From: an uncultured Acidobacteriota bacterium
Lineage (GTDB): Bacteria; Acidobacteriota; Blastocatellia; RBC074
NCBI GenBank assembly: GCA_963699175.1
Contig: OY969418.1
Span: forward strand, 2,205,352 to 2,269,351
Length of the DNA stretch: 64,000 nt
Reading direction: 5' to 3'
The position numbers and the translations under genes are program-made. A model generated the notes under the pieces. It made no database searches. It saw nothing but the letters and a program-made list of their open reading frames with translations, and was not told where the DNA came from. Positions within the stretch are counted from its first letter, which is position 1, and every line of letters begins with the position of its first letter. Shown one piece after another: positions 4,231 to 62,843 of the stretch.

Positions 4231-7200
4231 TTAAATGTACTTGGCCAAGACCGCCCGCACGGCCTCCGGGTCGTAAAACTCCTTCACCAACTCTTCCGCG
4301 CGGTAGCCGAGCAACTGGCCCGGCGCGGTGTAGCCGAGGTAGCGCATGCCTTCGGGGCTGCCATCGAAGCGCCCATCCGGCAACAGATCAAGCCACGCGC
4401 CGGGGCCGAAGCTGTAGCGATACAGGAAAGTCTCGCCCCGTTCATAATCCCAGAACTGCAAGCGTCCGGCAGCGCCCGCCGCGACCAGATATTTGCCGTT
4501 TGGCGCAAAAGCGACAGCTTCCACTGACCCCAGATTTCCTGCGAGCGTGCACAGCAGCTTCCCGTCGCACACCTGCCAGAGCCTGACCTTTGCATCAGCA
4601 CTGCCCGAGGCCAGCGTCAAGCCATCGGGCGCAAAGACGACCGAACTCACCTCGTGGGAGTGCCCGACGATTTCGCGCAGCAGCTTGCCGTCGCGCACCT
4701 GCCAGAGCCTGACCTTTTTGTCAGCACTGCCTGATGCCAGCGTCAAGCCATCGGGCGCAAAGGCGACCAACTTCACTGGTAAGGAGTGGCCGGTGAGTTC
4801 GCGCAGCAGCGAGCCATTGCGTACTTGCCAGAGTTTGACCGAGTTGTCATCACTGCTCGAAGCGAGTGTCGCACCATCGGGCGCAAAGGCGACCGCCCTT
4901 ACCCCAGAAGAGTGGCCGGTGAGTTCGCGCAGCAGCTTGCCGTCGCGTACTTGCCAGAGTTTGACCGAGTTGTCATCACTGCTCGAAGCGAGTGTCGCAC
5001 CATCGGGCGCAAAGGCGACCGCCCTTACCCCAGAAGAGTGGCCGGTGAGTTTGCGCAGCAGCTTGCCATCGCGCACCTGCCAGAGCTTGACCGAGCCGTC
5101 ACCACCGCCCGAAGCGAGCGTCGCGCCATCGGGCGCAAAGGCGACCGCATTCACCCTGCCGGAGTGGCTCGCGAGTTCGCGCAACAGCGTGCCATCGCGC
5201 ACCTGCCAGAGCTTGACCGAGCCGTCACCACCGCCCGAAGCGAGCGTCGCGCCATTGGGTGCAAAGGCGACCGCATTCACCCTCCCGGAGTGGCCCCCGA
5301 GTTCGCGCAACAGCGTGCCATCGCGCACCTGCCAGAGCTTGACCGAGCCGTCACCACCGCTCGAAGCGAGCGTCGCACCATCGGGCGCAAAGGCAACTAC
5401 AGTCACCCAATCTAAGTGACCCGCGAGTTCGCGCAGCATCGCGCCATCGCGCACCTGCCAGAGCTTGACCGAGCCGTCATCATCGCCCGAAGCGAGCGTC
5501 GCACCATCGGGCGCAAAGGCAACCGCCCTTACCCAATCTGAGTGGCCCGCAAGTTCGTGCAGCAGCGCGCCATTGCGTACTTGCCAGAGCTTGACCGAGT
5601 TGTCATCACTGCTCGAAGCGAGTGTCGCACCATCGGGCGCAAAGGCGACCGCCCTTACCCCAGAAGAGTGGCCGGTGAGTTTGCGCAGCAGCTTGCCATC
5701 GCGCACCTGCCAGAGCTTGACCGAGCCGTCACCACCGCCCGAAGCGAGCGTCGCGCCATTGGGTGCAAAGGCGACCGCATTCACCCTGCCGGAGTGGCCC
5801 CCGAGTTCGCGCAACAGCGTGCCATCGCGCACCTGCCAGAGCTTGACCGAGCCGTCACCACCGCCCGAAGCGAGCGTCGCGCCATCGGGCGCAAAGGCGA
5901 CCGCATTGGCTGCTTCACCGCCGCCCAACACTTGCAACAACATCCCATCGCTTGCGCGGTAAAGTCGAATCATTCCTTCTCTGTCACATTCGGCCAATAG
6001 TTTGCCATCGCTGCTGTAGGCTAAAGCGAGAATGGAACCTGTCGCACCCAGTTGGACAACCGGGCGCATTTCGCGAGTATCAATGGTGAAGAAGGGCCAA
6101 CCCGTCACCCCTATGAGCACAGCTTGGCGATAATCAGCCCCTGCCAGCCGGGCATTTTCCGTATTGGCTTCAGTTAGGTTGGCTGAGCGCAAATCAGCGC
6201 GGTCGAGCACGGCGTGGCCGAGCTTCGCTTTGGTCAAGTCCGCTCCGGCCAAGTTGGCTTCGGTCAAATCCACACTTTCCAGCACGGCTTCCTGCAATTG
6301 CGCGCCCGCCAATTGCGCACCCGGCGGAACGCGCCCAGCCAGGGCTTGCCGCAACTTTTCGACAGCGCCAATCTCTTCTTCCATCCCGGCGCGGATGCGG
6401 GCGCTCCAATACAGAATTTGCAGCGCGTTTTCCGACACGTTGGCTTGATAAGCTGCGCGCAAAATCTCTTGCAGCGGTTCGCGCAACGCATCCTGCTCAT
6501 CCAGCAGCGCCAGGAAATAGATGGTCTTCTGATCGTAGCGCCGCGTGTTCAGCATCTCGCGCAAGCCGACGGGATCGGCCAAACAATCCTGCAAACGGCG
6601 GGCGAGGAAAAATTCGCCGAACGAGCGGTGCATAAACGTGAAGTTGCCCGCATTGTCGCGTTTGAGGAAACTGGCGCTCTGCAATTCGACGGCGATGTCC
6701 GCCGCCTCTTCATCGCCAAGCTCAAGGCGTTGGTCGGCCACCAGCCGTTCGATAAAGGGGCAGAGTTCTTTGAAATGCGCCGCCTGCGTCGCATCGCGCC
6801 ACATCCGCCAGCCGAGTTCCAGCATCAAGGCCAGCCGCGTCTGTTTCCCCAAGCTGAGTTTGCGCCCCTTGCTGTCTTCACGGTCAATCCAGATGTTGGT
6901 GTAGACGTTGTAAAGATTGGCGGCATTGACCTGCTGCCCGGCTTTTAGACGCGGCAAGGATTTGACGATCATATCCAGCAACAGCGGGCGCGTGGCCAGG
7001 TCTTTCAGATTGTAGATGGCTTGAATCTTCTGCCAATCTTTTGCGTGGTCTTGCGGGCGGGCTTTCTTCAGATAATCCTTGATTTGATCGTCATTGAATT
7101 CCTGCAAATAGACGACCTCGGCGCTCGAACGCTGCCGCAAATCGCGGTAAAGCTCGGTCTCTGTTTCGGAAAGAGTCGGGCCTTCGCCGATGACTTTGAC

Positions 7201-48464: not shown

Positions 48465-51400
48465 CTATCTCACTGTGAAAGCGTTAGCTTTAGTGCTTGA
48501 GCCACCGTCAGGATTAGTGACCGTGACATCGCGCACCGACCTGATGGCATTGGTGGAAACTCTGATGGTGGCCGTCAATCTTGTGCTTGATTCGTACCTG
48601 GTAAAGATCGTTAGCCCAAAACCTTCAATGCTGATCTTAGCTTGCGGCACGAAGCCATCGCCGATAATGGTTAGCGTAATCCGCTCTCCTGGATCGGCAA
48701 AGCCTGGATAGATCTGATCAATCTTGATAGGAATACGAACTTGATGCGGTTCGTCAGATGAAGAACTGGCATTGAAGTTCGTGTCGCTTGCATAGCTCGC
48801 TCGCAACGTTCTAGCGCCAGCCGTGCTTAGCGTTAGCACACAACTCCCCGCAGTCACAGTGCCGGTGCAGGAATCTACCCCATCAGTTATGGTGACATTG
48901 CCTGTCAGTGTACCGCTGCCCGAAGCGTTAGCAGCAACCTGATAATTGACTGTCACCTGCTGGCCAACCAGAGATGGATCAGGCGTATCGGCGATGATCG
49001 TAGTCGTCGTGTTTGCTCGCGCTATCGAGAAAGTCCGCGCGACGTCCGGGGCCGGGCTGAAGTTCGCGTCGCCCGCTTGTGAAGCGGTGATAATGCAGCT
49101 TCCGGCTCCGGTGAGTGTGACAACGGCTCCATTCACCGTGCAATTGCCGCTCGCCGCAAATGACACAGGAAGCCCTGAGCTGGCAGTAGCCGACACCGCG
49201 AAAGGAGCATCGCCAAAAGTCTTGTTCGCTAACTGAGCGAAACTGATCGTCTGGGTTGGAGTATCAATGATGGTGACGGTCGCGGTGCCATTCGCGCCGA
49301 CATCATAGCTACCCGTGTCTCCCAGGATCAGAGTTAAAGTTTCATTGCCTTCCACCAGGTTATCTTTGACCGGTGTGATCGTGATTTCGACAAATGATTG
49401 GCCGGCAGGGATCGTTGCCGCGCCCGTGAGCGTTGGCGTGTAATCAGCGCTCGTGGCCTGTCCTGGCCCAGTGGCGATGGTGTAGCTGGCAGTCAACGGC
49501 CCAAGCAAGCTGCCAGTGCGAGTAATGCGGAAAGTACCGGTGTTGTTTCCAGTTTCCGCCGCGTTGGCGTCTGTGGCCGTGATGTTGATGATCGGTGTTG
49601 ACGAAGCGCCGATGGTTCCGGGAGAGCCGATTTCAGTGCTGTCATTTGCTGCGGCGAACGCGCCATTGCCCCCAACCGCACTCAAAAGCGAAATAGTAGT
49701 GTTGTTCAGTCCAGCCGCATTATCAAAGGTCGGGAATGGGCCGGTGGGAGAAGCGCCAAAGGTCACGCTTGCCTGCACCGCACCTGCGCTGTCGAACAGA
49801 TTGACCTGATCGCCTCCGGTGCTTAGGCCGATGCCTGCGCCGCTGTAGCTGCCGATTCGCAGGCTGGTCGGCGGATTGGCGCCGAACCAAAGAGTCTTGA
49901 AGGCGGCGCTCTTGCCGGCGAGATCGGTGGTTTCCAGGAAAATTACCGATTCGCCAGGGGCAATGCTGGTGATGCCATTCAACTCTACCGCGGTATTGAA
50001 TGAGCGCGAGTCATCGTCCACCCTCCAGCCGACGATGGTCGCAGTGGCGGTGCCTACGTTCGTTACCTCGAACCAATCAACGGCAAGACTGGGAACGCTA
50101 TTGCCGCTTGACCAGGGTGCCACCTCGGAAATGATGAGCGAGGCGCTTCCACCCACAGAGGGTGTAACCATCAGGATATAGTTAGTGGTTGCATCCGGTG
50201 TGCTGCCGACTGCGGGGTCATCTACATTGACGGCGACGTTGTAGGCGGGCTTGACCGTAGAGTTTAGAGCGACTCCCGCTTTCAGATACAACGCCGTACC
50301 GATAATCTGGAAAGCATTAGCGTCTGTTCCGGTAACAGTCAGGTTGTTGCGCCCAAGTCCGTCGTCAGTAACGATAATGTCCGCCAATTTAACTGGTGCC
50401 GCGGTGCTGGTATTTGCCGGAATCGAAGTGACAGTATTGTTCAGCCTGATTGCAGTTGGCGCTAGGTTCGGAGCGGTGGACGGCGCATAAACCCAAAGCT
50501 GCGGATGATCCATGTCACCGCCGCCATTCTCGCTCACCACGTAAAGGTTGCCATCGCGATCCATCGTCAAGCCTTCATGAGTCTGGTCAGCAACAGACAA
50601 AGGATTGCCGGGATCGGCGACGATCGTCATCCTACTGAAGACGGTTCCGGATCGGTCAGTGTTAATGATCTGACCTGATTCCTGGCTCAACACTAGCAGA
50701 TGGCTGAAATCGGGTTGTCCAGTCAGGGACGGCAGATTCGACAGCGCGAACACGTCAGAAAAGTCCGCCAGGTTGGCCAAAGCCGGATTGAACAGATTGG
50801 TCGAACCCGTTGCTGTCGGCGAACCGTTGGTCGCGGTTTTAGCGACAAAATCAATACCGGTCTGGAAAATTGATTGTGGGTCCGCCTCTTTGACGAAAAT
50901 AAATCCGCTGGTCAGCGGATCATAGGAGAGGCCTTCAAGCCCAATGTTTCCGATTGTCGTGCCGAGTTTGACGGTTTGCACGTCAGTTCTACGCAGAATG
51001 CCGCCGCCTACATACGTGAACAAATTGACTTGCCGGTCTCTCTCCTCTACCAACACGAACTTGCCGCCGCCCACATAAGTGATGCCTTCCGGATCGAAAA
51101 ATTCCGTGCCCTGTGCGCTTGAACCAGGAGCCAGCGTCATGGTGTCAATCAGTTGCCCGGTTTTCGTGACCTGAGTCACGGAGGTGCCGCCATCGCCTGT
51201 GATAAACAAGGTATCGGTGTCCCAGTTGTAGGTCACCCCCGAGGCTTCTTGCGCCAGCACATTGTTGGGTGGATGGGCAGTCCGCGTAGGTTCAGGCAGA
51301 TCGAAGCGGCCGATCCTGACATACGTGGATAGATCAACTGAGGTAACTGGTGCTGCGGCCCTGGTAACATGTCCGCCTAGCCCTGCCTGGACACGTTGAA

Positions 51401-51479
51401 TTGAAAGGCCCGCGACCGTGCCGAGCACGAGGGCAATCATAAGTAGGAAGGCAAATAGTTTGGAAAATCCTTTGTTCAC
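48465..51479 (-). CDS. large secreted multidomain surface protein (beta-propeller/phytase-like N-domain, lamin-tail-like domain, Calx-beta, Ig-like repeats, C-terminal IPT/TIG)
   Basis: Signal peptide MNKGFSKLFAFLLMIALVLGTVAG. LTD-like LIISEVAPWSSGNS...DWFEVTNVG...GWRVDDD. Calx-beta-like TFRITRTGSLLGPLTASYTI...ADYTP...VEGNETLTLIL. Terminal IPT-like ...VTVTNPDGGSS...FTV. Domain names are from memory. Confidence 0.7.
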   Translation of the reverse strand: MNKGFSKLFAFLLMIALVLGTVAGLSIQRVQAGLGGHVTRAAAPVTSVDLSTYVRIGRFDLPEPTRTAHPPNNVLAQEASGVTYNWDTDTLFITGDGGTSVTQVTKTGQLIDTMTLAPGSSAQGTEFFDPEGITYVGGGKFVLVEERDRQVNLFTYVGGGILRRTDVQTVKLGTTIGNIGLEGLSYDPLTSGFIFVKEADPQSIFQTGIDFVAKTATNGSPTATGSTNLFNPALANLADFSDVFALSNLPSLTGQPDFSHLLVLSQESGQIINTDRSGTVFSRMTIVADPGNPLSVADQTHEGLTMDRDGNLYVVSENGGGDMDHPQLWVYAPSTAPNLAPTAIRLNNTVTSIPANTSTAAPVKLADIIVTDDGLGRNNLTVTGTDANAFQIIGTALYLKAGVALNSTVKPAYNVAVNVDDPAVGSTPDATTNYILMVTPSVGGSASLIISEVAPWSSGNSVPSLAVDWFEVTNVGTATATIVGWRVDDDSRSFNTAVELNGITSIAPGESVIFLETTDLAGKSAAFKTLWFGANPPTSLRIGSYSGAGIGLSTGGDQVNLFDSAGAVQASVTFGASPTGPFPTFDNAAGLNNTTISLLSAVGGNGAFAAANDSTEIGSPGTIGASSTPIINITATDANAAETGNNTGTFRITRTGSLLGPLTASYTIATGPGQATSADYTPTLTGAATIPAGQSFVEITITPVKDNLVEGNETLTLILGDTGSYDVGANGTATVTIIDTPTQTISFAQLANKTFGDAPFAVSATASSGLPVSFAASGNCTVNGAVVTLTGAGSCIITASQAGDANFSPAPDVARTFSIARANTTTTIIADTPDPSLVGQQVTVNYQVAANASGSGTLTGNVTITDGVDSCTGTVTAGSCVLTLSTAGARTLRASYASDTNFNASSSSDEPHQVRIPIKIDQIYPGFADPGERITLTIIGDGFVPQAKISIEGFGLTIFTRYESSTRLTATIRVSTNAIRSVRDVTVTNPDGGSSTKANAFTVR

Positions 51480-52429: not shown

Positions 52430-53419
52430 ATGAGAGTTCTGATCACCGGCGGCGCCGGTTTCATTGGCTCACACTTGGCAGATCAGCATCATAAGCGCGG
52501 CGACGAGGTCTACATTATTGATGACCTTTCGACCGGAGCTATGGAGAATATCGAACAACTGAAAGGCTTGCCCCGTTTTCACTACCATCTGGATACGGTC
52601 ACTAATCAACGCTTGACGGCTGAGTTAGTGGATACCTGTGACGTGATCTATCACTTGGCGGCGGCGGTCGGTGTACGCTTAATAGTGGAAAGCCCGGTAC
52701 GCACCATCGAGACGAATATTCGCGGCACTGAAGTCGTACTTGAGCTTGCCGCCAAGAAACGCAAGCGCGTGCTGGTCGCTTCAACTTCTGAGGTTTATGG
52801 CAAACGCAACACTACGCCTTTCAGCGAAGACGATGACTTGATCCTGGGACCGACCAACAAGGGGCGTTGGAGCTACGCCTGCTCGAAGGCGATTGATGAA
52901 TTTCTGGCGATTGCCTACTGGAAAGAGAAACGTGTCCCGACCGTAATTGCGCGACTCTTCAATACGGTCGGGCCACGCCAAACAGGACAGTATGGAATGG
53001 TGATTCCGAGCCTAGTGCGTCAAGCGCTCAAGGGCGAAGCCATCACCGTTTACGGCGACGGCTCACAAACGCGCTGCTTCACCCACGTCACGGACGTCGT
53101 CGGCGGGTTGATGAAATTGTGCGAACACCCGCAGGCGGTCGGCGAGGTTTACAATATCGGCGGCAATCAGGAAGTGTCTATTCTGGAGTTAGCCGAACGC
53201 ATCAAATCATTGACCGGCTCCGCTTCACCTATCGTTTTCATACCATATCACGAAGCATACGAGACTGGCTTTGAAGATATGCTGCGGCGCGTGCCCGATC
53301 TCACCAAGCTCCAACGTCTGATTGGCTACGAGCCGCAGCACACGCTGGATGACATTCTGCGCAGCGTGATTGATTATCAACGAACCAAAATGGACATTCT
53401 CCCTTCGACCTATTCCTAG
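52430..53419 (+). CDS. NAD-dependent epimerase/dehydratase (extended SDR) nucleotide-sugar enzyme
   Basis: GGAGGT RBS. Start MRVLITGGAGFIGSHL (Rossmann GxxGxxG). Catalytic YACSKAIDE (YxxxK). Confidence 0.85.
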   Translation: MRVLITGGAGFIGSHLADQHHKRGDEVYIIDDLSTGAMENIEQLKGLPRFHYHLDTVTNQRLTAELVDTCDVIYHLAAAVGVRLIVESPVRTIETNIRGTEVVLELAAKKRKRVLVASTSEVYGKRNTTPFSEDDDLILGPTNKGRWSYACSKAIDEFLAIAYWKEKRVPTVIARLFNTVGPRQTGQYGMVIPSLVRQALKGEAITVYGDGSQTRCFTHVTDVVGGLMKLCEHPQAVGEVYNIGGNQEVSILELAERIKSLTGSASPIVFIPYHEAYETGFEDMLRRVPDLTKLQRLIGYEPQHTLDDILRSVIDYQRTKMDILPSTYS

Positions 53420-53697
53420 CCCTGGCTGACGCAGGAACACCTATGCTTCTTATCCCTGGTTTTGTATTCTGCTCCCAGGCTTAGCCCTTAGGCACTGTCT
53501 TCGCAGCTCGCCACCGCTGCCCGCTTCATCAGGAAAAAACTGCGAAGATAGAGGTCGTCAGATACCCACAACTTTGTCGCTGCCCTTCTTTCTTTGGGCT
53601 TTTACCGATTGAGTTACACGACTTGGAAAGTTATCCCCTTGCGTAGAGTGTCCGTCAAAGTTTTGCACACGGGGAAACGGACTGTTCGGCACGCGTA

Positions 53698-54137
53698 GCG
53701 CAATCTGCCGAGCATTCGTTTCTACACAAGTCCGCGCTCCTCTAGCTCCGTAGGAGCGCAATGTTTATAGCATCGTAAGCCAGCGCAGCGTTTAGCTCCG
53801 TAGGAGCGGCATCTGCTAGCCTCAGATGCCGCTCCTACGGAGCTAGGAGGCTATTGACGCAACCCCCTAAAAACATTGCGCTCCTACGGAGCGGGGAAAA
53901 TTTGTGTAGAAACGAATGCTGCCGAGGTTGCGCCGCTGCGTTGCCGAAGTGATGGGGGAAACGGATATATGTGATGTGAAGCCGCGCAACCTCGGCAGCT
54001 AAAGTTTCTACACAAGTCTGGTGCTGGCTCGTAAGTCCTTTGCTTTGAGAAATGGCATTTTCGACGCGAGCGCCATAAGTCCCTTAGAATTGGCACAACT
54101 CAAACTTGTGTAGAAACTTTAGCTCGGCAGGTTGCGC
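53698..54137. repeat. complex of four ~32-bp repeats in alternating orientation, forming two large hairpins with nested inner palindromes
   Basis: Four copies of gcgcaa(t/c)ctgccgagc(a/t)...gtttctacacaagtc: 53698-53732 (+), 53902-53933 (-), 53984-54018 (+), 54104-54137 (-). The first loop holds further inverted repeats built on ctccgtaggagc, and gcggcatctg ctagcctca gatgccgc. Confidence 0.6.
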
Positions 54138-54227
54138 TACGCAGGTTCAGCCATCTGATCACGGAGTGGTAACTTTCCAAAGTCGTGAACTGGACCGCTT
54201 TGCGCTACGATTGCCGAATGTTCAGTC

Positions 54228-54722
54228 CTACAATTGCGCCAGAAAATATGCCAGATCAAAGAACTCTCTCTCCGATTGAATTTTCCCCTGCTGGTTGAAC
54301 TTGAAGAAGCCGATGCCTTCCAGGAAGAAGACATTTCCGGTCTTGGTCTTAAAACGCAACCTCCAATTGACGGCGGCTTCCTGACCGCACACCTTGACGT
54401 CCAGGGAGTAGAGTTTGATTTGACTGAAGAGAGTGGGGAACGATGCCAAATAAGCGGCGATGGCTTGTGTTCCCTGGATCGGCGGAATTCCGACCGGGTC
54501 TTCAACCACGGCGTCAGCGGCGAAATGGCTTACGACCCCTTGGGCGTCGAACGCAGCCAATTTGGTAAAAACTTCCTCAATCACCGCCTCGATCTGCTCC
54601 GAGGTCAGATCGTAGGTTGCAGCCGCCTCAACGCGCGTGACGCTCGAAGCGCTCAATAACATGAGCGCCAGCGCCAGCGCCGTCATCTTTTTCAAAAACA
54701 GACTTTGGTTTCTCATTCTCAT
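54228..54722 (-). CDS. SnoaL/NTF2-like fold protein, secreted
   Basis: Start at MRMRNQSLFLKKMTALALALMLLSASSVTRVEA (AAGGA RBS). ~130-aa mature domain with the hydrophobic-cone pattern of NTF2-like proteins. Weak call. Confidence 0.5.
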   Translation of the reverse strand: MRMRNQSLFLKKMTALALALMLLSASSVTRVEAAATYDLTSEQIEAVIEEVFTKLAAFDAQGVVSHFAADAVVEDPVGIPPIQGTQAIAAYLASFPTLFSQIKLYSLDVKVCGQEAAVNWRLRFKTKTGNVFFLEGIGFFKFNQQGKIQSEREFFDLAYFLAQL

Positions 54723-57181: not shown

Positions 57182-58453
57182 ATGAAAGAAATAACCGGGT
57201 ATGTGAGCTACGATAAGAGGCGCAACAGTTGGTGCGGCCGAGTCTCCTTGACTGACCCCGACACCGGCAAAAGGAAGTGGTTCAAGCGCTACGGCAGCAC
57301 CAAGACTGAAGCCCGGCAGCGGGTCAGAGATCTGATCACAAGGTTTGAAAAGGGCGGCGTGCAATCCGTTACCGCTGACCGCCACTCCTTCGCTTACCTG
57401 GCTCAGAAGTTCAAAAAGGAAAAGCTGATCCCTGCCGTTTACCTGGGCGAAAGAAAGATCGCCGGTCGGCGCACCCTCTCCCCGCCCCTAGCCTGGCTGA
57501 ACCAGTTGAGGCTCTTCTTTGACGAGTACAAGCTGACGGAGATTACCGCAGGCGAGGTGCGTAAGTTCAAAGTCTGGCTCTCGAAGATCCCCTCGCGCAG
57601 CCAGATCAAAGAGGAGGACGGCGTGCTGAAACTAATCGTCAAAGAAGACGGCGAGCAGCGTGGCATTGACTCGGTCAACCGGCCCATCGAATTGCTGCGC
57701 ACCATGCTGAATTACGCAGTGGAGGAAAATCTGCTGCGGCCAGAGAACAATCTATTCCTGGCGATGCGCGGCCGTAAGCTGATCGATAGGGCTGCTGAGG
57801 GGAAACGGGAGCGCTTTCCAACCTTCGGCGAGGAACTGGCCCTACTCAAGTTTTGCAACATTGAGGGGCAACTCGGCAACGCTCACCTGCGCCCGATCTT
57901 GATAGTCGCAGCGGATACTGGATTGCGTCGCAATGAGCTACTTACACTCATAGATACTGACCTGGATTTTGGCCGCGAGATTATTCGCCTGCGCGCGTTC
58001 AACGCGAAGACCAACCGGCCGCGCCAAATACCGATGACGCCGCGCGTGAAGCTGGAACTGCAGAAGATGGTGGAAAAGAATAGGGCAGGTCTCGTCTTCG
58101 GCGGGATCAAAAACGTAAAGCGCTCTTATGCTACGGCCTGCCGCAAGTGCGGGATTGAAGACCTGAACCGTCATGACTTCCGGCATGGTTTTGTTAGCCG
58201 GGCGATCCTCGCTGGCATCCCGCCCGCTGTGGCGCTCTCGGCCAGCGGTCACGCCAGCGACGAATGGAAACGCTATCTGAATATGACACCGGATCAGTTG
58301 CAGTACCTGCTTGAGCCGCTGGACGGGCAGGACGCGCAGGAAGTCCAGGTTTATGCGGAAGAGGTTATGCGCGGCCTGCGGGAGGCGCTTAAGTACGATC
58401 AAGTGGAGAGACTCTTTGTGACGCCGCAAACTGGACGCGAGCGGCATGGGTAA
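57182..58453 (+). CDS. tyrosine-type site-specific recombinase / phage integrase
   Basis: GAGGAAG RBS. C-terminal catalytic region with LRRNELLTL..., HDFRHGFVSRAI and the terminal tyrosine region GHASDEWKRYLNM (R-H-R-Y set). Confidence 0.85.
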   Translation: MKEITGYVSYDKRRNSWCGRVSLTDPDTGKRKWFKRYGSTKTEARQRVRDLITRFEKGGVQSVTADRHSFAYLAQKFKKEKLIPAVYLGERKIAGRRTLSPPLAWLNQLRLFFDEYKLTEITAGEVRKFKVWLSKIPSRSQIKEEDGVLKLIVKEDGEQRGIDSVNRPIELLRTMLNYAVEENLLRPENNLFLAMRGRKLIDRAAEGKRERFPTFGEELALLKFCNIEGQLGNAHLRPILIVAADTGLRRNELLTLIDTDLDFGREIIRLRAFNAKTNRPRQIPMTPRVKLELQKMVEKNRAGLVFGGIKNVKRSYATACRKCGIEDLNRHDFRHGFVSRAILAGIPPAVALSASGHASDEWKRYLNMTPDQLQYLLEPLDGQDAQEVQVYAEEVMRGLREALKYDQVERLFVTPQTGRERHG

Positions 58454-58854: not shown

Positions 58855-59047
58855 CCGGGCCGTCCTCAACACCTCACCCCTAATCACCCTCTGCAAAAGC
58901 GGGCAGGAGTATCTGCTTCCGCGATTGTTCGCTGAAATCGTCGTACCCGACGCAGTCTGGGATGAAGTGCTGGCGGGTAGTGAGGTGCGTATTCGCACGC
59001 AACGTGAACACCGATTCGCAGCCAACGTGAACACCAATTCGCATTGA
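58844..59047 (+). pseudogene. PIN-like (DUF3368-type) toxin gene truncated after ~47 codons by an IS21 insertion
   Basis: 4-nt overlap with the antitoxin stop. N-terminus VLNTSPLITLCKSGQEYLLPRLFAEIVVPDAVWDEVLAGSE matches the partner family. The reading then runs into the IS21 terminal repeats. Confidence 0.55.
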
Positions 59048-59220
59048 TCGTGAACGCCGATTCGCACGTCGTGAACACCGATTGGCAAGCCAGTGAACAC
59101 GGATTCGCACGATCGTGAACGCGGGTGTCGGGCGTGCGCCGCCCGCGCGGAGTGTGCTGGAAATCATTTAGACAGTGCTGGACGCTGTCCTCCTATTTTC
59201 TTCAAGGAGGACTCGCTGCA

Positions 59221-60762
59221 ATGCCAGCACCAAAGATTTCCATGCCACGACTCACTGAACTTTTACGTCTCCACGCCGCCGGGCTTTCACAACGTCAGAT
59301 CGCCCAAAGCCTCGACCTCTCGGTCGGCGTCGTCAACAAATATCTCCAACTCGCCCAAGCGCGCGGCCTCGGCTGGCCACTGCCGGCCGAACTGACTGAA
59401 GCGGCCTTGTGGCAACTGCTGGAAGGCGCGACTACGGCGGCCACCAGCACGCCACTCGCCGCACCTGATTTCTCCCTCATCCATCGCGAACTGCAACGCA
59501 AGGGCGTCACGCGCCTCTTACTCTGGGAAGAGTATGTGGCGGTCTATCCCGACCGGCATTACAGCTATGCACAGTTCTGCCGCCTCTACCGCGAATGGCG
59601 CGCTGGGGTCAAGCCCACCTTACGTCAGACGCAGCACGCCGGCGAAAAGCTCTTTGTGGATTACGCCGGGCAGACCGTGCCGATCGTAGACACGCTGACG
59701 GGCGCAGTCTGGCAAGCCCAAATCTTTGTGGCCGTCTTGGGCGCCTCCAATTACACCTACGCCGAAGCGACCGCCACGCAACGGCTGCACGATTGGGTCG
59801 GCGCACACGCGCGGGCCTTCGCCTTCTTCGGCGGCGTGCCGCAATTAGTCGTGCCGGACAATCTCAAGAGCGCCGTGCGCAAAGCCTGCCGTTACGAGCC
59901 GTTGCTCAATCGCACCTATCAAGAGTTGCTGGCCCACTACAACACCGCCGCTTTGCCAGCTCGCCCCTACAAACCGCGCGATAAGGCTAAAGCCGAAGTC
60001 GGCGTGCAGGTCGTCGAGCGTTGGCTCTTGGCACGATTGCGCCAGCAGACTTTCTTCTCGCTCGCCGAACTCAATCAAGCGTTGCGGCACCTGCTCACCC
60101 GACTCAATGACCGGCCTTTCAAAAAGCTGCCGGGCTCGCGCCGCTTTCAGTACGAAGCCCTTGATCGTCCCGCCTTGCGCCCCTTGCCAGCGCAGCCTTT
60201 CGTCTACGCCGAGTGGAAGAAGGCGCGCGTGCACATTGACTATCACGTGGAAGTCGAAGGCCCTTACTACAGCGTGCCGCACGCGCTGATCCGGCGCGAA
60301 ATCGAGCTGCGCCTCACGGCCACCACGGTCGAATGCTTGTATCAAGGTGAGCGCGTCGCCGCGCATCCACGCTCCGACCGCAAAGGCGCGCACACCACTA
60401 ACCCGGAACACATGCCCAAGTCACATCGCGCCCATCTGGAATGGACGCCAGGCCGCTTCCTCAATTGGGCACTGGAGATCGGTCCGCAAACGCGCGATCT
60501 GGTGCAGCACTTACTGACCAATCGCCCACACCCCGAGATGGGGTTTCGCTCCTGTTTGGGCTTGCTCTCGTTGGCCAAAAACTATGGCAAGCGGCGGCTG
60601 GAAGCGGCTTGTACGCGCGCCCTTGCGCTCGGCTCACCGACGCGCCGTAGCGTCGTCTCGATCCTGGAGAAGGGGCTGGAAAACCAACCGCTGCCGGAAA
60701 GCACGCTCGAATTGCCCGCGCCGCGTCACGCCAATTTACGCGGCGCGGACTACTACTATTAA
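59221..60762 (+). CDS. istA: IS21 family transposase IstA
   Basis: Start [31 protein letters not shown] (HTH) after an AAGGAGGA RBS. DDE integrase-core-like centre (...LFVDYAG...). Confidence 0.85.
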
Positions 60763-60786
60763 CCCATCACACGAAGGAGACCTTGG

Positions 60787-61539
60787 ATGCTCAATCAACA
60801 AACACTCACGCGCCTGCGCGCACTCAAACTCTTCGGGCTGGCTGAGGCCTTGGCCCAACAACTGGAACAACCGCCCACGCAAGCGCTCGCCTTTGAAGAG
60901 CGTCTGGCGCTGTTGGTCGAACGCGAAGTCAGCTATCGTGATAACCGCCGGCTACAATGCCTCTTGCGAGCCGCTAAGCTCAGACAGCCCGCTTGCGTAG
61001 AAGACATTGACTATCGCCACCAGCGCGGGCTTGAACGTACGCTGGTAGCCACGCTCACGAGTTGCGACTGGATTCGCGCCCACCACAATCTGCACATTAC
61101 GGGTCCAACGGGGACGGGCAAGAGTTGGCTAGCTTGCGCCTTCGGTAATCAAGCTTGCCGCCAAGGCTTGAGCGTCCGCTATGAACGCACAGGCCGTCTA
61201 CTCGACCAATTACGCGTGGCACGTGGCGACGGCAGTTACCCAAAACTTTTGCGCCAACTGGCGCGGGTAGAGTTACTGATCCTGGATGACTTCGGGCTCA
61301 AACCGCTCACGCAGACTGAGCGCCACGACTTATTGGAAGTGATTGAAGACCGGCACGGTGTGCACTCGACCCTGCTGACGAGTCAATTACCGATCCGTGC
61401 TTGGCACGAATATCTGAACGAACCGACCGTCGCCGACGCCCTGCTGGATCGGCTGCTCAATGGCGCGCATCGGCTCGAATTAACTGGCGATTCAATGCGC
61501 CAGAAAGAAGCCTTGACCAAAGTGAAGGCAAAGCAGTAG
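60787..61539 (+). CDS. istB: IS21 family helper ATPase IstB
   Basis: Walker [23 protein letters not shown]. Walker B LLILDDFG. 250 aa. Confidence 0.9.
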
Positions 61540-61726
61540 AACTTAAGCGCCAGCGCGCTCCGCGCGCGTTCACGATCGTGCCAATCGGCGTTCATGATGC
61601 TTGCCATTCAGCGTTCATCTTCGTGCGAATACCCACCTGAAGCCATAGAAAAGCATTAGTGGTTTAATCTTAGCAGTTGTATAATCCCTGTCCAATTATC
61701 GAGCCTGTCCATAAAAGGAGTAATTT

Positions 61727-61930: not shown

Positions 61931-62843
61931 ATGGTTGCGCACCATCGGCGGGCCGGGCGTGTGGAGAGTGGCCTGGTCGCCGGACGGGAAGCTGCTGGCC
62001 AGCCAGTTGGCGGATGACGCCGTACAGGTTTGGGACGCGGCGACGGCAAAGTTGTGGCATACGCTCGGCGGGAATACAGCGTACGGGCGCTTGGCGTGGG
62101 CACCCGACGGAGGGCGGTTGGCCACGAGCGGGAATGACAATAACATTCGCTTGTGGGACGTGACGAGCGATACGTTGTTGCACCGCCTGAGCGCCCACAC
62201 TGAGCACGTGCAATGCCTCGCCTGGTCGGCCGACGGACAAACGCTGGCGAGCGGCGGCAATGATTGTACGGTGCGGCTTTGGAGTGCGGAAGAGGGGAAA
62301 CTGTTGCGCACGCTGCTTACGCCGGAGAGCCACTTGAACTGGCTGAAGGGGGTGAAGTGGTCAGCGGATGGAAAGCGGCTGCTGAGCATAACGTTACACA
62401 GTAGGTTGCATGTTTGGGACGCGGCGACGGGAGAATTGCTGCACACCCTAAACGAGGACGAAGATTTTGGGCTGCGCGAGCTGTCTTGGTCAGCGAGTGG
62501 TGACTTGGTAGCGGGCAGCAACGGGGGCAACACAATCAGACTCTGGGACTCGGCCAGTGGAAAGCTGTTGCAGCAACTGGGTTGTCACGACGGCGACATC
62601 GACAGTATAGCTTTCTCGCCCGATCAGACGTTGCTTGCCAGCGGTAGCAAAAACGGCAACGTCACCGTCTGGGCCATCGAGACTGGGGCAGAACTGCAAT
62701 CCTTTGCCACCAATTTGCCTGCGCACGAACTAAAGGAAGTCGCGTTTGTAGCATCAGGTCCCTTTTCAACATCAACAGTTTTCGGGCAGACGCCGTACGG
62801 CACACCCACGATTGCGGTAACTGTCTTCGAGTCAGGCAAATAA
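61866..62843 (+). CDS. WD40 repeat protein (start uncertain; begins mid-repeat)
   Basis: Seven or more WD40 units (...SPDGKLLAS...VQVWDAATAKL...). No own RBS. Confidence 0.55.
   Translation: MIDISLMNCLSAICLYDAASGEWLRTIGGPGVWRVAWSPDGKLLASQLADDAVQVWDAATAKLWHTLGGNTAYGRLAWAPDGGRLATSGNDNNIRLWDVTSDTLLHRLSAHTEHVQCLAWSADGQTLASGGNDCTVRLWSAEEGKLLRTLLTPESHLNWLKGVKWSADGKRLLSITLHSRLHVWDAATGELLHTLNEDEDFGLRELSWSASGDLVAGSNGGNTIRLWDSASGKLLQQLGCHDGDIDSIAFSPDQTLLASGSKNGNVTVWAIETGAELQSFATNLPAHELKEVAFVASGPFSTSTVFGQTPYGTPTIAVTVFESGK

Follow-up and report, generated by a model that had tools for sequence, protein, structure and literature searches.

A probable doublet of GTAG-tagged repetitive extragenic palindromes in a Blastocatellia genome, each palindrome split by a short non-coding hairpin element

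What kind of element consists of four related repeats of alternating orientation, closed around two dissimilar cargoes in the gap between two convergent bacterial genes? This question is raised by a locus at 53698–54137 of a 64-kb stretch of DNA from an uncultured bacterium of the Blastocatellia (Acidobacteriota), hereafter the window, whose positions are used throughout. The original prediction, made from the sequence alone, described two large hairpins sharing 32-bp terminal repeats and likened them to a tandem of miniature inverted-repeat transposable elements (MITEs) or to a recombinase-driven invertible promoter switch. Comparison with related sequences from other assemblies and metagenomes (loci L001–L161) suggests another answer: the locus is probably a doublet of GTAG-tagged repetitive extragenic palindromes (REPs), resembling the inverted REP dimers called REPINs and belonging to a Blastocatellia family associated with REP-associated tyrosine transposases (RAYTs), with each REP split at its hairpin apex by a short non-coding element termed H (copies H1 and H2).

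The whole repeat structure is harbored in the 809-bp gap between the convergent epimerase and SnoaL-like genes. The predicted repeats are indeed present as copies A (53698–53732, +), B (53898–53933, −), C (53984–54018, +) and D (54102–54137, −), each of ~35 nt and found nowhere else in the window: the core 14-mer GTTTCTACACAAGT has four matches at two or fewer mismatches vs 0.18 expected (none of 100 shuffled sequences reached four), all of them confined to the locus. The further palindromes reported in the first cargo were found as well, with GCTCCGTAGGAGCG occurring four times as nested palindromes (pair I5, 26 nt at 96%; pair I6, 23 nt at 100%). Two hairpins with near-perfect terminal inverted repeats were recovered in part: arms A and B are 84% complementary and 172 nt apart (pair I4), and arms C and D are 86% complementary and 80 nt apart (pair I2), but this pairing holds for the inner 20 nt of the repeats, where A is matched with B, and C with D. 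For the outer 15 nt, the best partners are found across the hairpins, A with D (pair I1, 39 nt, 87%) and B with C (pair I3, 36 nt, 86%), and the A/D pairing reaches GCGTA/TACGC, outside the interval first proposed.

Read in one orientation, with B and D inverted as B' and D', the repeats turn out to be mosaic: A is GCGCAAT-CTGCCGAG-CATTC-GTTTCTACACAAGT, B' is GCGCAAC-CTCGGCAG-CATTC-GTTTCTACACAAAT, C is GCGCAAC-CTCGGCAG-CTAAA-GTTTCTACACAAGT, and D' is GCGCAAC-CTGCCGAG-CTAAA-GTTTCTACACAAGT. In other words, A and D' have CTGCCGAG in common and its reverse complement occurs in B' and C, at the same time ATTC is shared by A and B', and TAAA by C and D'. Each ~35-nt repeat is a chimera, whose outer 15 nt are half of a REP and whose inner 20 nt are the terminal inverted repeat (TIR) of the hairpin element H.

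REP here denotes a 22-nt GTAG-tagged palindrome, GCGCAAYCT-NNNN-AGRTTGCGC (also written GTAGCGCAAYCT...AGRTTGCGC). The underlying scaffold of the locus would read GTAG-CGCAATCTGCCGAGGTTGCGC, a 50-nt spacer and GCGCAACCTCGGCAGGTTGCG-CTAC; H1 (206 nt) and H2 (124 nt), with common TIRs of ~20 nt and different cargoes, would each split one REP at the apex of its hairpin. Along the + strand, the GTAG tag of REP1 (53695–53698), a tag bounding the composite in nearly all related loci, is followed by the left half of REP1, GCGCAAT-CTGCCGAG (53698–53712, the outer part of A), pairing with 54123–54137 with a single G-T exception. H1 (53713–53918) is delimited by TIRs (CATTCGTTTCTACACAAGT and its inverted copy), and its cargo comprises two nested doublets of the mini-palindrome GCTCCGTAGGAGC. 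The right half of REP1, CTGCCGAG-GTTGCGC (53919–53933, +, the outer part of B), pairs with 53984–53998, i.e., with the left half of REP2, GCGCAAC-CTCGGCAG (+, the outer part of C), from which it is separated by the doublet spacer (53934–53983, +); the latter has complementary ends and is alignable in part with the spacer of L013. H2 (53999–54122), with a TIR variant of the H1 family, CTAAAGTTTCTACACAAGT, and a distinct cargo of ~85 nt containing GTAAGTCCTTTG, precedes the right half of REP2, CTCGGCAG-GTTGCGC (54123–54137, +, the outer part of D), and the second GTAG tag (54137–54140, −; CTAC on the + strand). Each H is flanked by an 8-nt direct repeat, a putative target-site duplication: CTGCCGAG at 53705–53712 (+), identical to 53919–53926, and CTCGGCAG at 53991–53998, with its right copy at 54123–54130.

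The repeat-derived region exceeds the interval first proposed on both sides. Upstream, a conserved flank of the repeat unit, GTGTCCGTCAAAGTTTTGCACACGGGGAAACGGAC...GGCACGC (~53646–53697, +), with its own small hairpin GTCCGT...ACGGAC, is alignable with the flank of L030, which comes from another Acidobacteriota MAG (metagenome-assembled genome), and a three-way alignment including L013 gives 74% mean column identity. Downstream, a degenerate third REP (~54186–54208, pair I7), with a GTAG tag at 54205–54208 (−) and a CGGCAA flank, reads TTCGGCAATC-GTAGCGCAAAGCGGTCCAG on the − strand of 54186–54218 and includes GTAGCGCAA at 54200–54208; the latter motif occurs four times in the window vs 0.77 expected, three times at the locus.

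All three tags lie outside their palindromes, as is characteristic of REPs. With H and one copy of the direct repeat removed, a REP of the window takes the form GCGCAACCT-NNNN-AGGTTGCGC, a 9-bp stem with a 4-nt loop. REP1 and REP2 repeat each other exactly in inverted form, apart from a single T/C difference, as expected of the inverted doublets of REPINs and REPtrons, and their loops are exact reverse complements. Excision in silico of H1, H2 and one direct-repeat copy each leaves a 100-nt inverted doublet fitting the pattern of the empty doublets described below. By definition, GTAG REPs possess the GTAG tag and a short palindrome with a stem of 5–13 bp and a loop of 2–20 nt (PMC3733652), and REPINs are inverted REP dimers (PMC3116915); the elements described here agree with both published definitions in their tag, in their stem of 9 bp and loop of 4 nt, and in forming inverted dimers with conserved spacers.

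The proposed check for a dispersed family, a search with the terminal repeat, was positive. The degenerate 30-nt pattern GCGCAANCTNNNNAGNNNNNGTTTCTACAC, covering outer and inner parts of the repeat, matched 34 loci in 11 GTDB representative assemblies, nearly all of them Acidobacteriota/Blastocatellia MAGs; one MAG, DATEMY01, harbors 14 of these H-bearing loci, and many matches are situated at contig ends. Doublets bearing H amount to about 33 loci in about 10 Acidobacteriota/Blastocatellia MAGs. The named homologues of the epimerase encoded next to the window locus come from Acidobacteria/Blastocatellia too, which makes the same group probable for the window organism. The oriented repeat ends are of two kinds, with a preceding GTA (GTAG-CGCAA...) or without it, and the GTAG is conserved at the outer ends of the composites in L001–L034. 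In most related loci, an intact 22-nt palindrome lies ~30 nt from a copy split by a GTTTCTACAC-type hairpin, so that empty and H-filled palindromes stand side by side on one scaffold (L010, L007, L033, L018, L013, L030, L011, L014, and L001). The general scaffold is GTAG, REP, spacer, inverted REP, CTAC, with H in either REP or in both; L017 is a second doubly occupied doublet like that of the window. The doublet without H is far more abundant: its pattern was found in at least 120 soil-metagenome stretches, most units measuring 79–80 nt. Of the 121 empty-doublet units listed, 104 have loops exactly reverse-complementary to each other, at least eight covarying loop variants being represented, and stem position 7 covaries too (C-G/A-T/T-A).

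About 20 paired copies of H were found in relatives, ranging from about 100 to 370 nt, none of them protein-coding. Identical direct repeats of 8–9 nt flank 11 of the 12 complete H insertions and covary with the local REP loop, some variants being private to one REP (CTGTCCAG in L010, CTCAGCAG in L019, and the 9-mer CTTGGCGAG in L017). As judged from sequence, the duplication of the central 8–9 nt of the REP looks like the signature of a target-site duplication, one of the features of MITEs, and the 8-nt repeats around H1 and H2 (CTGCCGAG, CTCGGCAG) would be the mark of a staggered-cut insertion. H1 and H2 conform to MITEs in other respects as well, having TIRs of ~20 nt, lengths of 206 and 124 nt, and just short overlapping open reading frames (ORFs) without Pfam matches. 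Since the direct repeats reproduce the REP loop, H acts in the manner of a MITE whose target is the REP apex, a specificity also known from some insertion sequence (IS) elements. Insertion into REPs is on record for IS elements of five families (PMC1525189), which makes a REP-apex-specific non-autonomous derivative plausible. The cargo of H2 has the GTAAGTCCTTTG motif in common with the H copies of L017, as noticed by eye.

The original suggestion of a MITE tandem is upheld as far as the mobile-element-derived, MITE-like character of the locus is concerned. Taken literally, it would mean two adjacent, opposite MITEs of one family with ~35-nt TIRs wholly recognized by the transposase, the GCCG/CGGC asymmetry being an unconstrained spot. 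The family is dispersed, as this explanation expects; several copies (L028, L005, L027, L029, and L034) consist of a single cargo between two GTAG-tagged 35-nt ends with TA directly outside, and the whole complex of the window is bounded by TA...TA. A pair of MITEs with a common 32-bp TIR is disfavored, however, because the outer 15 nt belong to the separate and far more abundant REP doublet: they exist alone as intact 22-nt palindromes at the same 120 or more loci, also beside filled ones. Moreover, 11 of the 12 cases show the 8-mer repeated directly and not invertedly, in covariation with the local REP, the unit of B, spacer and C with its outward ends goes unexplained although it is the exact middle of a REP doublet, and the outer motif flanks RAYT genes with no H nearby. 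All in all, the tandem of two MITEs seems unlikely.

The linkage to RAYT genes was found in relatives of the window. RAYTs were searched for by a motif scan and by tblastn with an E. coli YafM sequence as the query; a RAYT-motif match in L012 turned out to be an unrelated ORF. Among the empty-doublet loci, YafM had two tblastn matches, L126 and L122. In L126, a 261-aa ORF is enclosed by a doublet on either side, with one more REP after it, and contains the HUH motif PNHVHAVF as well as the tyrosine motif YVVSNPVKAGLV; in L122, a doublet overlaps the stop codon of the same Y1-transposase gene. The MAG with 14 H-bearing loci, DATEMY01, also carries a RAYT gene (L159): 2 nt past its stop codon come GTAGCGCAACCTGCCGAGGTTGCGC, 114 nt and ACGCAACCTCGGCAGGTTGCGCTAC, together a doublet belonging to precisely the REP subfamily of the window. 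Doublets reside on both sides of the RAYT gene in L161, and REPs downstream of it in L160, so that the putative RAYT gene is flanked by the same REPs in five relatives (L126, L122, L159, L160, and L161). In NCBIfam, the L126-type ORF is most similar to the REP-associated tyrosine transposase (70 bits, E = 1.8e-19); in the PDB, it comes closest to E. coli TnpArep (4ER8), and its homologues bear the JGI name "REP element-mobilizing transposase RayT". The assignment to RAYTs is a putative one, resting on sub-threshold or marginal profile scores together with the motifs, the genomic context, and the names in the source databases.

Two likenesses were noticed by eye in this connection. One flank of the dispersed doublets, GCCGCCGATT(T/C)..., is similar to the short segment that separates the upstream REP from the start codon of the RAYT (L159:1455–1500, L126:518–551), and the other, ...GAACGAGCG..CAACC-GTAG, is similar to the final ~25 nt of this gene; hence, the dispersed copies seem to carry pieces of REPtron ends.

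Could the RAYT itself have made the H-bearing REPs? According to this explanation, C^T cleavage and strand exchange between REPs and other hairpins would join REP halves, and the apparent target-site duplication would be a by-product of the joining and not of a DDE-type insertion. E. coli TnpArep does cleave single-stranded DNA at C^T near the REP and catalyze strand exchange (PMC3333891). The direct repeat begins with CT, no H was seen outside REPs in scans with REP-containing patterns, and no transposase of H was found in ~0.83 Mb of related sequence. Still, the joining of halves from two different REPs would not be expected to place on either side of H a loop variant that only one REP possesses, such as CTTGGCGAG, present twice in L017, or CTCAGCAG, present twice in L019 with a different partner REP. 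In addition, transposition by Y1/HUH enzymes of the IS200/IS605 type characteristically leaves no target duplication. The origin of H by RAYT activity is, therefore, highly improbable, and insertion of H into pre-existing REPs is the preferred reading.

A number of side observations concern the main REP subfamily (L041–L158, e.g., L136:380–640, L132, and L150; also L010, L033, L018, L019, and L020), where the doublet is enclosed in a polar unit of ~150 nt, a module absent from the window copy. One side of this unit consists, in this order, of TTTTCCGAGGAG-N6-ATG, a GTCGC..GCGAC hairpin and GCCCTGAAACAATGAAAATCGGCGGCGAGM-GTAG; the opposite side is CTAC-TTTTTCCGAGGAG-N5-11-ATG, the ATG being the start of unrelated host genes. 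A Shine-Dalgarno sequence is present 10 nt from the repeat in 52 of the 121 listed units, and the element may supply or duplicate translation-initiation regions. Reading the conserved ATGAAAATCGGCGGCGAG flank as a leader peptide was rejected, with the frame changing between 79- and 80-nt doublets and the small upstream ORF varying in length next to a conserved hairpin. Tandem arrays of the whole unit, similar to arrays of bacterial interspersed mosaic elements (BIMEs), occur in L108:2939–3161 (period of ~143 nt), L047, L155, and L100. In L050, L112, and L114 (3 of 52 units), but not in 46 others, the stretch of ~30 nt separating the 25-nt inverted REPs runs opposite to its usual direction with respect to the polar flanks, which could reflect rare inversion between REPs or an opposite orientation of insertion. 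Finally, in L004 (CAZWAK010000025, labeled uncultured Heliobacteriaceae, probably by a binning error) and in L018 (Blastocatellia), the element precedes homologous genes (MPVKEDFAK... and MPIKEDFAN..., respectively), with different H cargoes at the same position.

The fold of the locus raises the possibility of a structured non-coding or cis-regulatory RNA depending on a four-way junction, in which the repeats would be helices of one RNA. The minimum free energy (MFE) fold of 53680–54225 is a perfect four-way junction on either strand (z = −16.9 and −15.6), made up of the four half-REPs and the four termini of H; its advantage over a pair of separate hairpins amounts to 28 kcal/mol under RNA parameters and to 16 kcal/mol under DNA parameters. 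The junction is preferred because the central 4 nt can pair neither inside A/B (GCCG/GCCG) nor inside C/D (CGGC/CGGC), and it can be perfect because both REPs are occupied by H. Apart from this very stable fold, compensatory changes would suit an RNA: the H1-type copies of six assemblies (the window and five others) are alignable over their full length and form a common three-tier hairpin, in which 7 of 87 predicted pairs show such changes. On one strand of the oriented doublets, G-U pairs outnumber A-C (64 vs 20). A further hint comes from Acido-Lenti-1 (RF01687), a two-hairpin RNA motif (Weinberg et al. 2010, PMC2864571), whose gathering score of 37 bits is nearly reached (36.9 bits) by the cargo of a different H subtype, with two inverted copies per element.

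Against these hints, the two strands fold almost equally well, as DNA palindromes would, and the strand-biased G-T pairing is equally expected of the single-stranded DNA substrates of Y1 transposases. The helices are gained and lost as blocks with direct-repeat scars, i.e., they behave as insertions, and no promoter or terminator signals framing the element were found. No Rfam family reached its gathering threshold in the window or in 14 related loci; the best Acido-Lenti-1 score in the window is 21.5 bits (53794–53847, the core of H1), H2 having no match. A functional RNA as the explanation of the locus is, thus, very unlikely. Near-threshold Acido-Lenti-1 matches (30–36.9 bits) were also observed as inverted pairs in H cargoes (L002:3796–3840, L019:5212–5256, and L010:3816–3860) and elsewhere in the loci (L025:970–1014, L001:903–964, and L018:1557–1601); this candidate small RNA (sRNA) motif may be a module of palindromic repeats and not a free-standing sRNA.

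The remaining explanation, the invertible promoter switch of the original prediction, treats the repeats as recombination sites between which one or both cargos would flip, altering the expression of the neighboring genes. These neighbors, encoding an NAD-dependent sugar epimerase/dehydratase (52430–53419, +; Pfam PF16363/PF01370) and a secreted SnoaL/NTF2-like protein (54228–54719, −, start taken at MRMRNQ; PF12680), both converge on the element; a promoter inside it would therefore drive only antisense transcription. The inverted repeats around segments of 85–170 nt are real, and one weak sigma-70-like match exists in cargo 2 (54061–54090), but promoter-like sites are not enriched at the locus (2 vs 0.8 ± 0.8 expected). 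The spacer flipped in 3 of 52 oriented empty doublets and the one H1-type copy of four that is flipped relative to its REP might be taken for inversions, but such rare flips are equally explicable by the orientation of insertion.

As to the enzyme, it had been noted that no recombinase adjoins the locus and that the nearest is an integrase 3 kb away. This proved correct for the distance, the gene at 57182–58453 coding for a tyrosine recombinase of 423 aa, but nothing supports a role of this enzyme at the locus: it is a generic recombinase (42.6 bits with the best model vs a 220-bit cut-off), it scores far below the cut-offs for integron integrases and Xer, it sits beside an IS21 element, and no link between it and the repeats was found. 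In many genomes (~10 assemblies), the same architecture recurs near unrelated genes, and no recombinase was seen to accompany it regularly. The switch is unsupported and is the least likely of the explanations considered. Integron attC sites, brought to mind by GCGCAAC/GTTGCGC and by the ORFs right after the repeat, were rejected too: the integrase is not of the integron type, no cassette array is present, a linkage to RAYT was found instead, and GCGCAAC and GTTGCGC each deviate at one position from the attC core consensus RYYYAAC / GTTRRRY.

The IS21-family element adjoining the recombinase spans 58991–61617, with a transposase at 59125–60762 (NF033546, 293 bits), an IstB-like ORF after ~61140, and multiple subterminal repeats of ~23 bp at 58991–59109 and 61554–61617, unrelated to the repeats of the locus. 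No tRNA was found in the window. Upstream of the epimerase gene, a 1004-aa protein with SdiA-regulated/phytase-like, lamin-tail, Calx-beta, and Big_3_5 domains is encoded at 48465–51479 (−). Five repeats of ~41 nt with a 123–135-nt period (62025–62578) and three near-identical coding-strand repeats (5042–5700, near 5056, 5182, and 5686) probably belong to repeat-domain proteins and are unrelated to the REP locus. An orthologous empty site was sought via epimerase homologues, but the closest ones, 83–84% identical, are followed by a Glycos_transf_4 gene instead of the SnoaL-like gene.

Several observations weigh against the interpretation of the locus as a REPIN-like doublet of a RAYT-associated family invaded by H. 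The motif scan and tblastn with YafM found no RAYT in the 64-kb window or in L001–L034, and the RAYT ORF of the relatives scores below the NCBIfam equivalog cut-off (70 vs 80 bits) and marginally on Pfam Y1_Tnp (23.5 vs 23). Within the window, the repeats form this locus only; a high copy number and a cognate RAYT in its own genome are presumed. The length of the true duplication is bounded to 4–9 nt, because the CT and AG at the ends of the direct repeats are themselves palindromic. No autonomous element with the termini of H (CATTSGTTTCTACACAAGT) was found in ~0.83 Mb of related sequence, these termini were matched to no IS family, and the two long TIR pairs present, one in L031 and one in L033, either surround ordinary genes or arose by chance. 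H was seen solely inside REPs, both collection scans having used REP-containing patterns. Lastly, the copies with one H between two GTAG-tagged half-REPs (L028, L005, L006, L027, L029, and L034) look like a plain MITE with 35-nt TIRs; they might represent deletion derivatives of a doubly occupied doublet, generated by recombination between directly repeated H termini.

On balance, the REPIN-like doublet with split REPs is still regarded as the probable identity of the locus. Its history could then be pictured as follows: the doublet would be mobilized, now or formerly, in trans by a RAYT acting on single-stranded hairpins, and H would have arrived by transposition, through some transposase. 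Any present-day role of the window copy between convergent genes would be incidental and not that of a switch; it could serve as a transcript-end hairpin, as REP/BIME elements do. A tentative and rather doubtful extension is that H represents an undescribed class of non-autonomous REP-apex transposon, a parasite of a parasite, spreading in the REPIN population with an 8-nt duplication of the REP loop and shuffling palindromic cargo modules, one of them being the Acido-Lenti-1 "sRNA" of Rfam; doubly occupied REPINs might then form four-way (Holliday-like) junctions acting as recombination hot spots and yielding the single-H "fused" copies.

REP/REPIN–RAYT systems are known above all from Proteobacteria. 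Their taxonomic reach would be widened by a large family of GTAG REPs and RAYTs belonging to Blastocatellia and abundant in soil metagenomes; the 2013 survey of GTAG repeats listed none for Acidobacteria, just TIR-flanked tyrosine transposases (PMC3733652). REP doublets into which a second hairpin element has moved, leaving a clean signature of insertion, would represent a tractable bacterial case of layered parasitism and offer a concrete explanation for the "ornate" intergenic palindromes of Blastocatellia genomes. In annotation, such loci, which also break MAG assemblies, as seen from the many matches at contig ends, would be better masked as repeats than called switches or structured RNA genes.

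How do these elements compare with the known ones? Elements of the Correia, ERIC, RUP, and BOX type insert at simple targets, e.g., TA for Correia. Like these bacterial MITEs (Neisseria Correia, ERIC, RUP, BOX), H is small, non-coding, hairpin-forming, multicopy and intergenic and has TIRs (PMC3184786 for the class), but it was encountered inside another repeat and nowhere else, with a cargo that is pieced together from other palindromic modules. The likeness to Acido-Lenti-1 concerns the cargo of a different H subtype, and the window locus is not a member of this family. In its target, H resembles the REP-targeting IS elements (IS1397 and ISKpn1 of IS3; members of IS110, IS4, IS256, and IS5), inserting inside REP palindromes, at the apex, with a short flanking duplication (PMC1525189); unlike them, its copies at this locus span just 124–206 nt and encode nothing, with termini matched to no IS family.

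Like the REPINs of Pseudomonas fluorescens (PMC3116915), the elements described here are inverted doublets of ~80–100 nt foldable as one long hairpin, with reverse-complementary loops, many dispersed copies, and linkage to a RAYT. The REPINs of P. fluorescens are replicated as a unit by a single-copy RAYT (PMC3116915); many copies in the present family differ from them in having conserved polar flanks extending well past both REPs.

The GTAG REPs and BIMEs of E. coli, with the TnpArep REPtron, offer a parallel as well. E. coli TnpArep performs C^T cleavage and strand exchange, proposed as the source of BIME diversity (PMC3333891). In both cases, GTAG marks one end of a short GC-rich palindrome, alternating copies are joined by linkers (PMC3333891, PMC3733652), the location is extragenic and often between convergent genes, and a RAYT gene having HUH and Tyr motifs is bordered by these repeats, 4ER8 being the best structural match by sequence. 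The present family differs in sequence and phylum, in its larger RAYT (~260 aa vs 165 aa in E. coli), and in a near-perfect 9-bp stem with a 4-nt loop, where the stem mismatch needed by E. coli TnpArep was not seen; it differs further in that both REPs of the window copy are interrupted by a second element.

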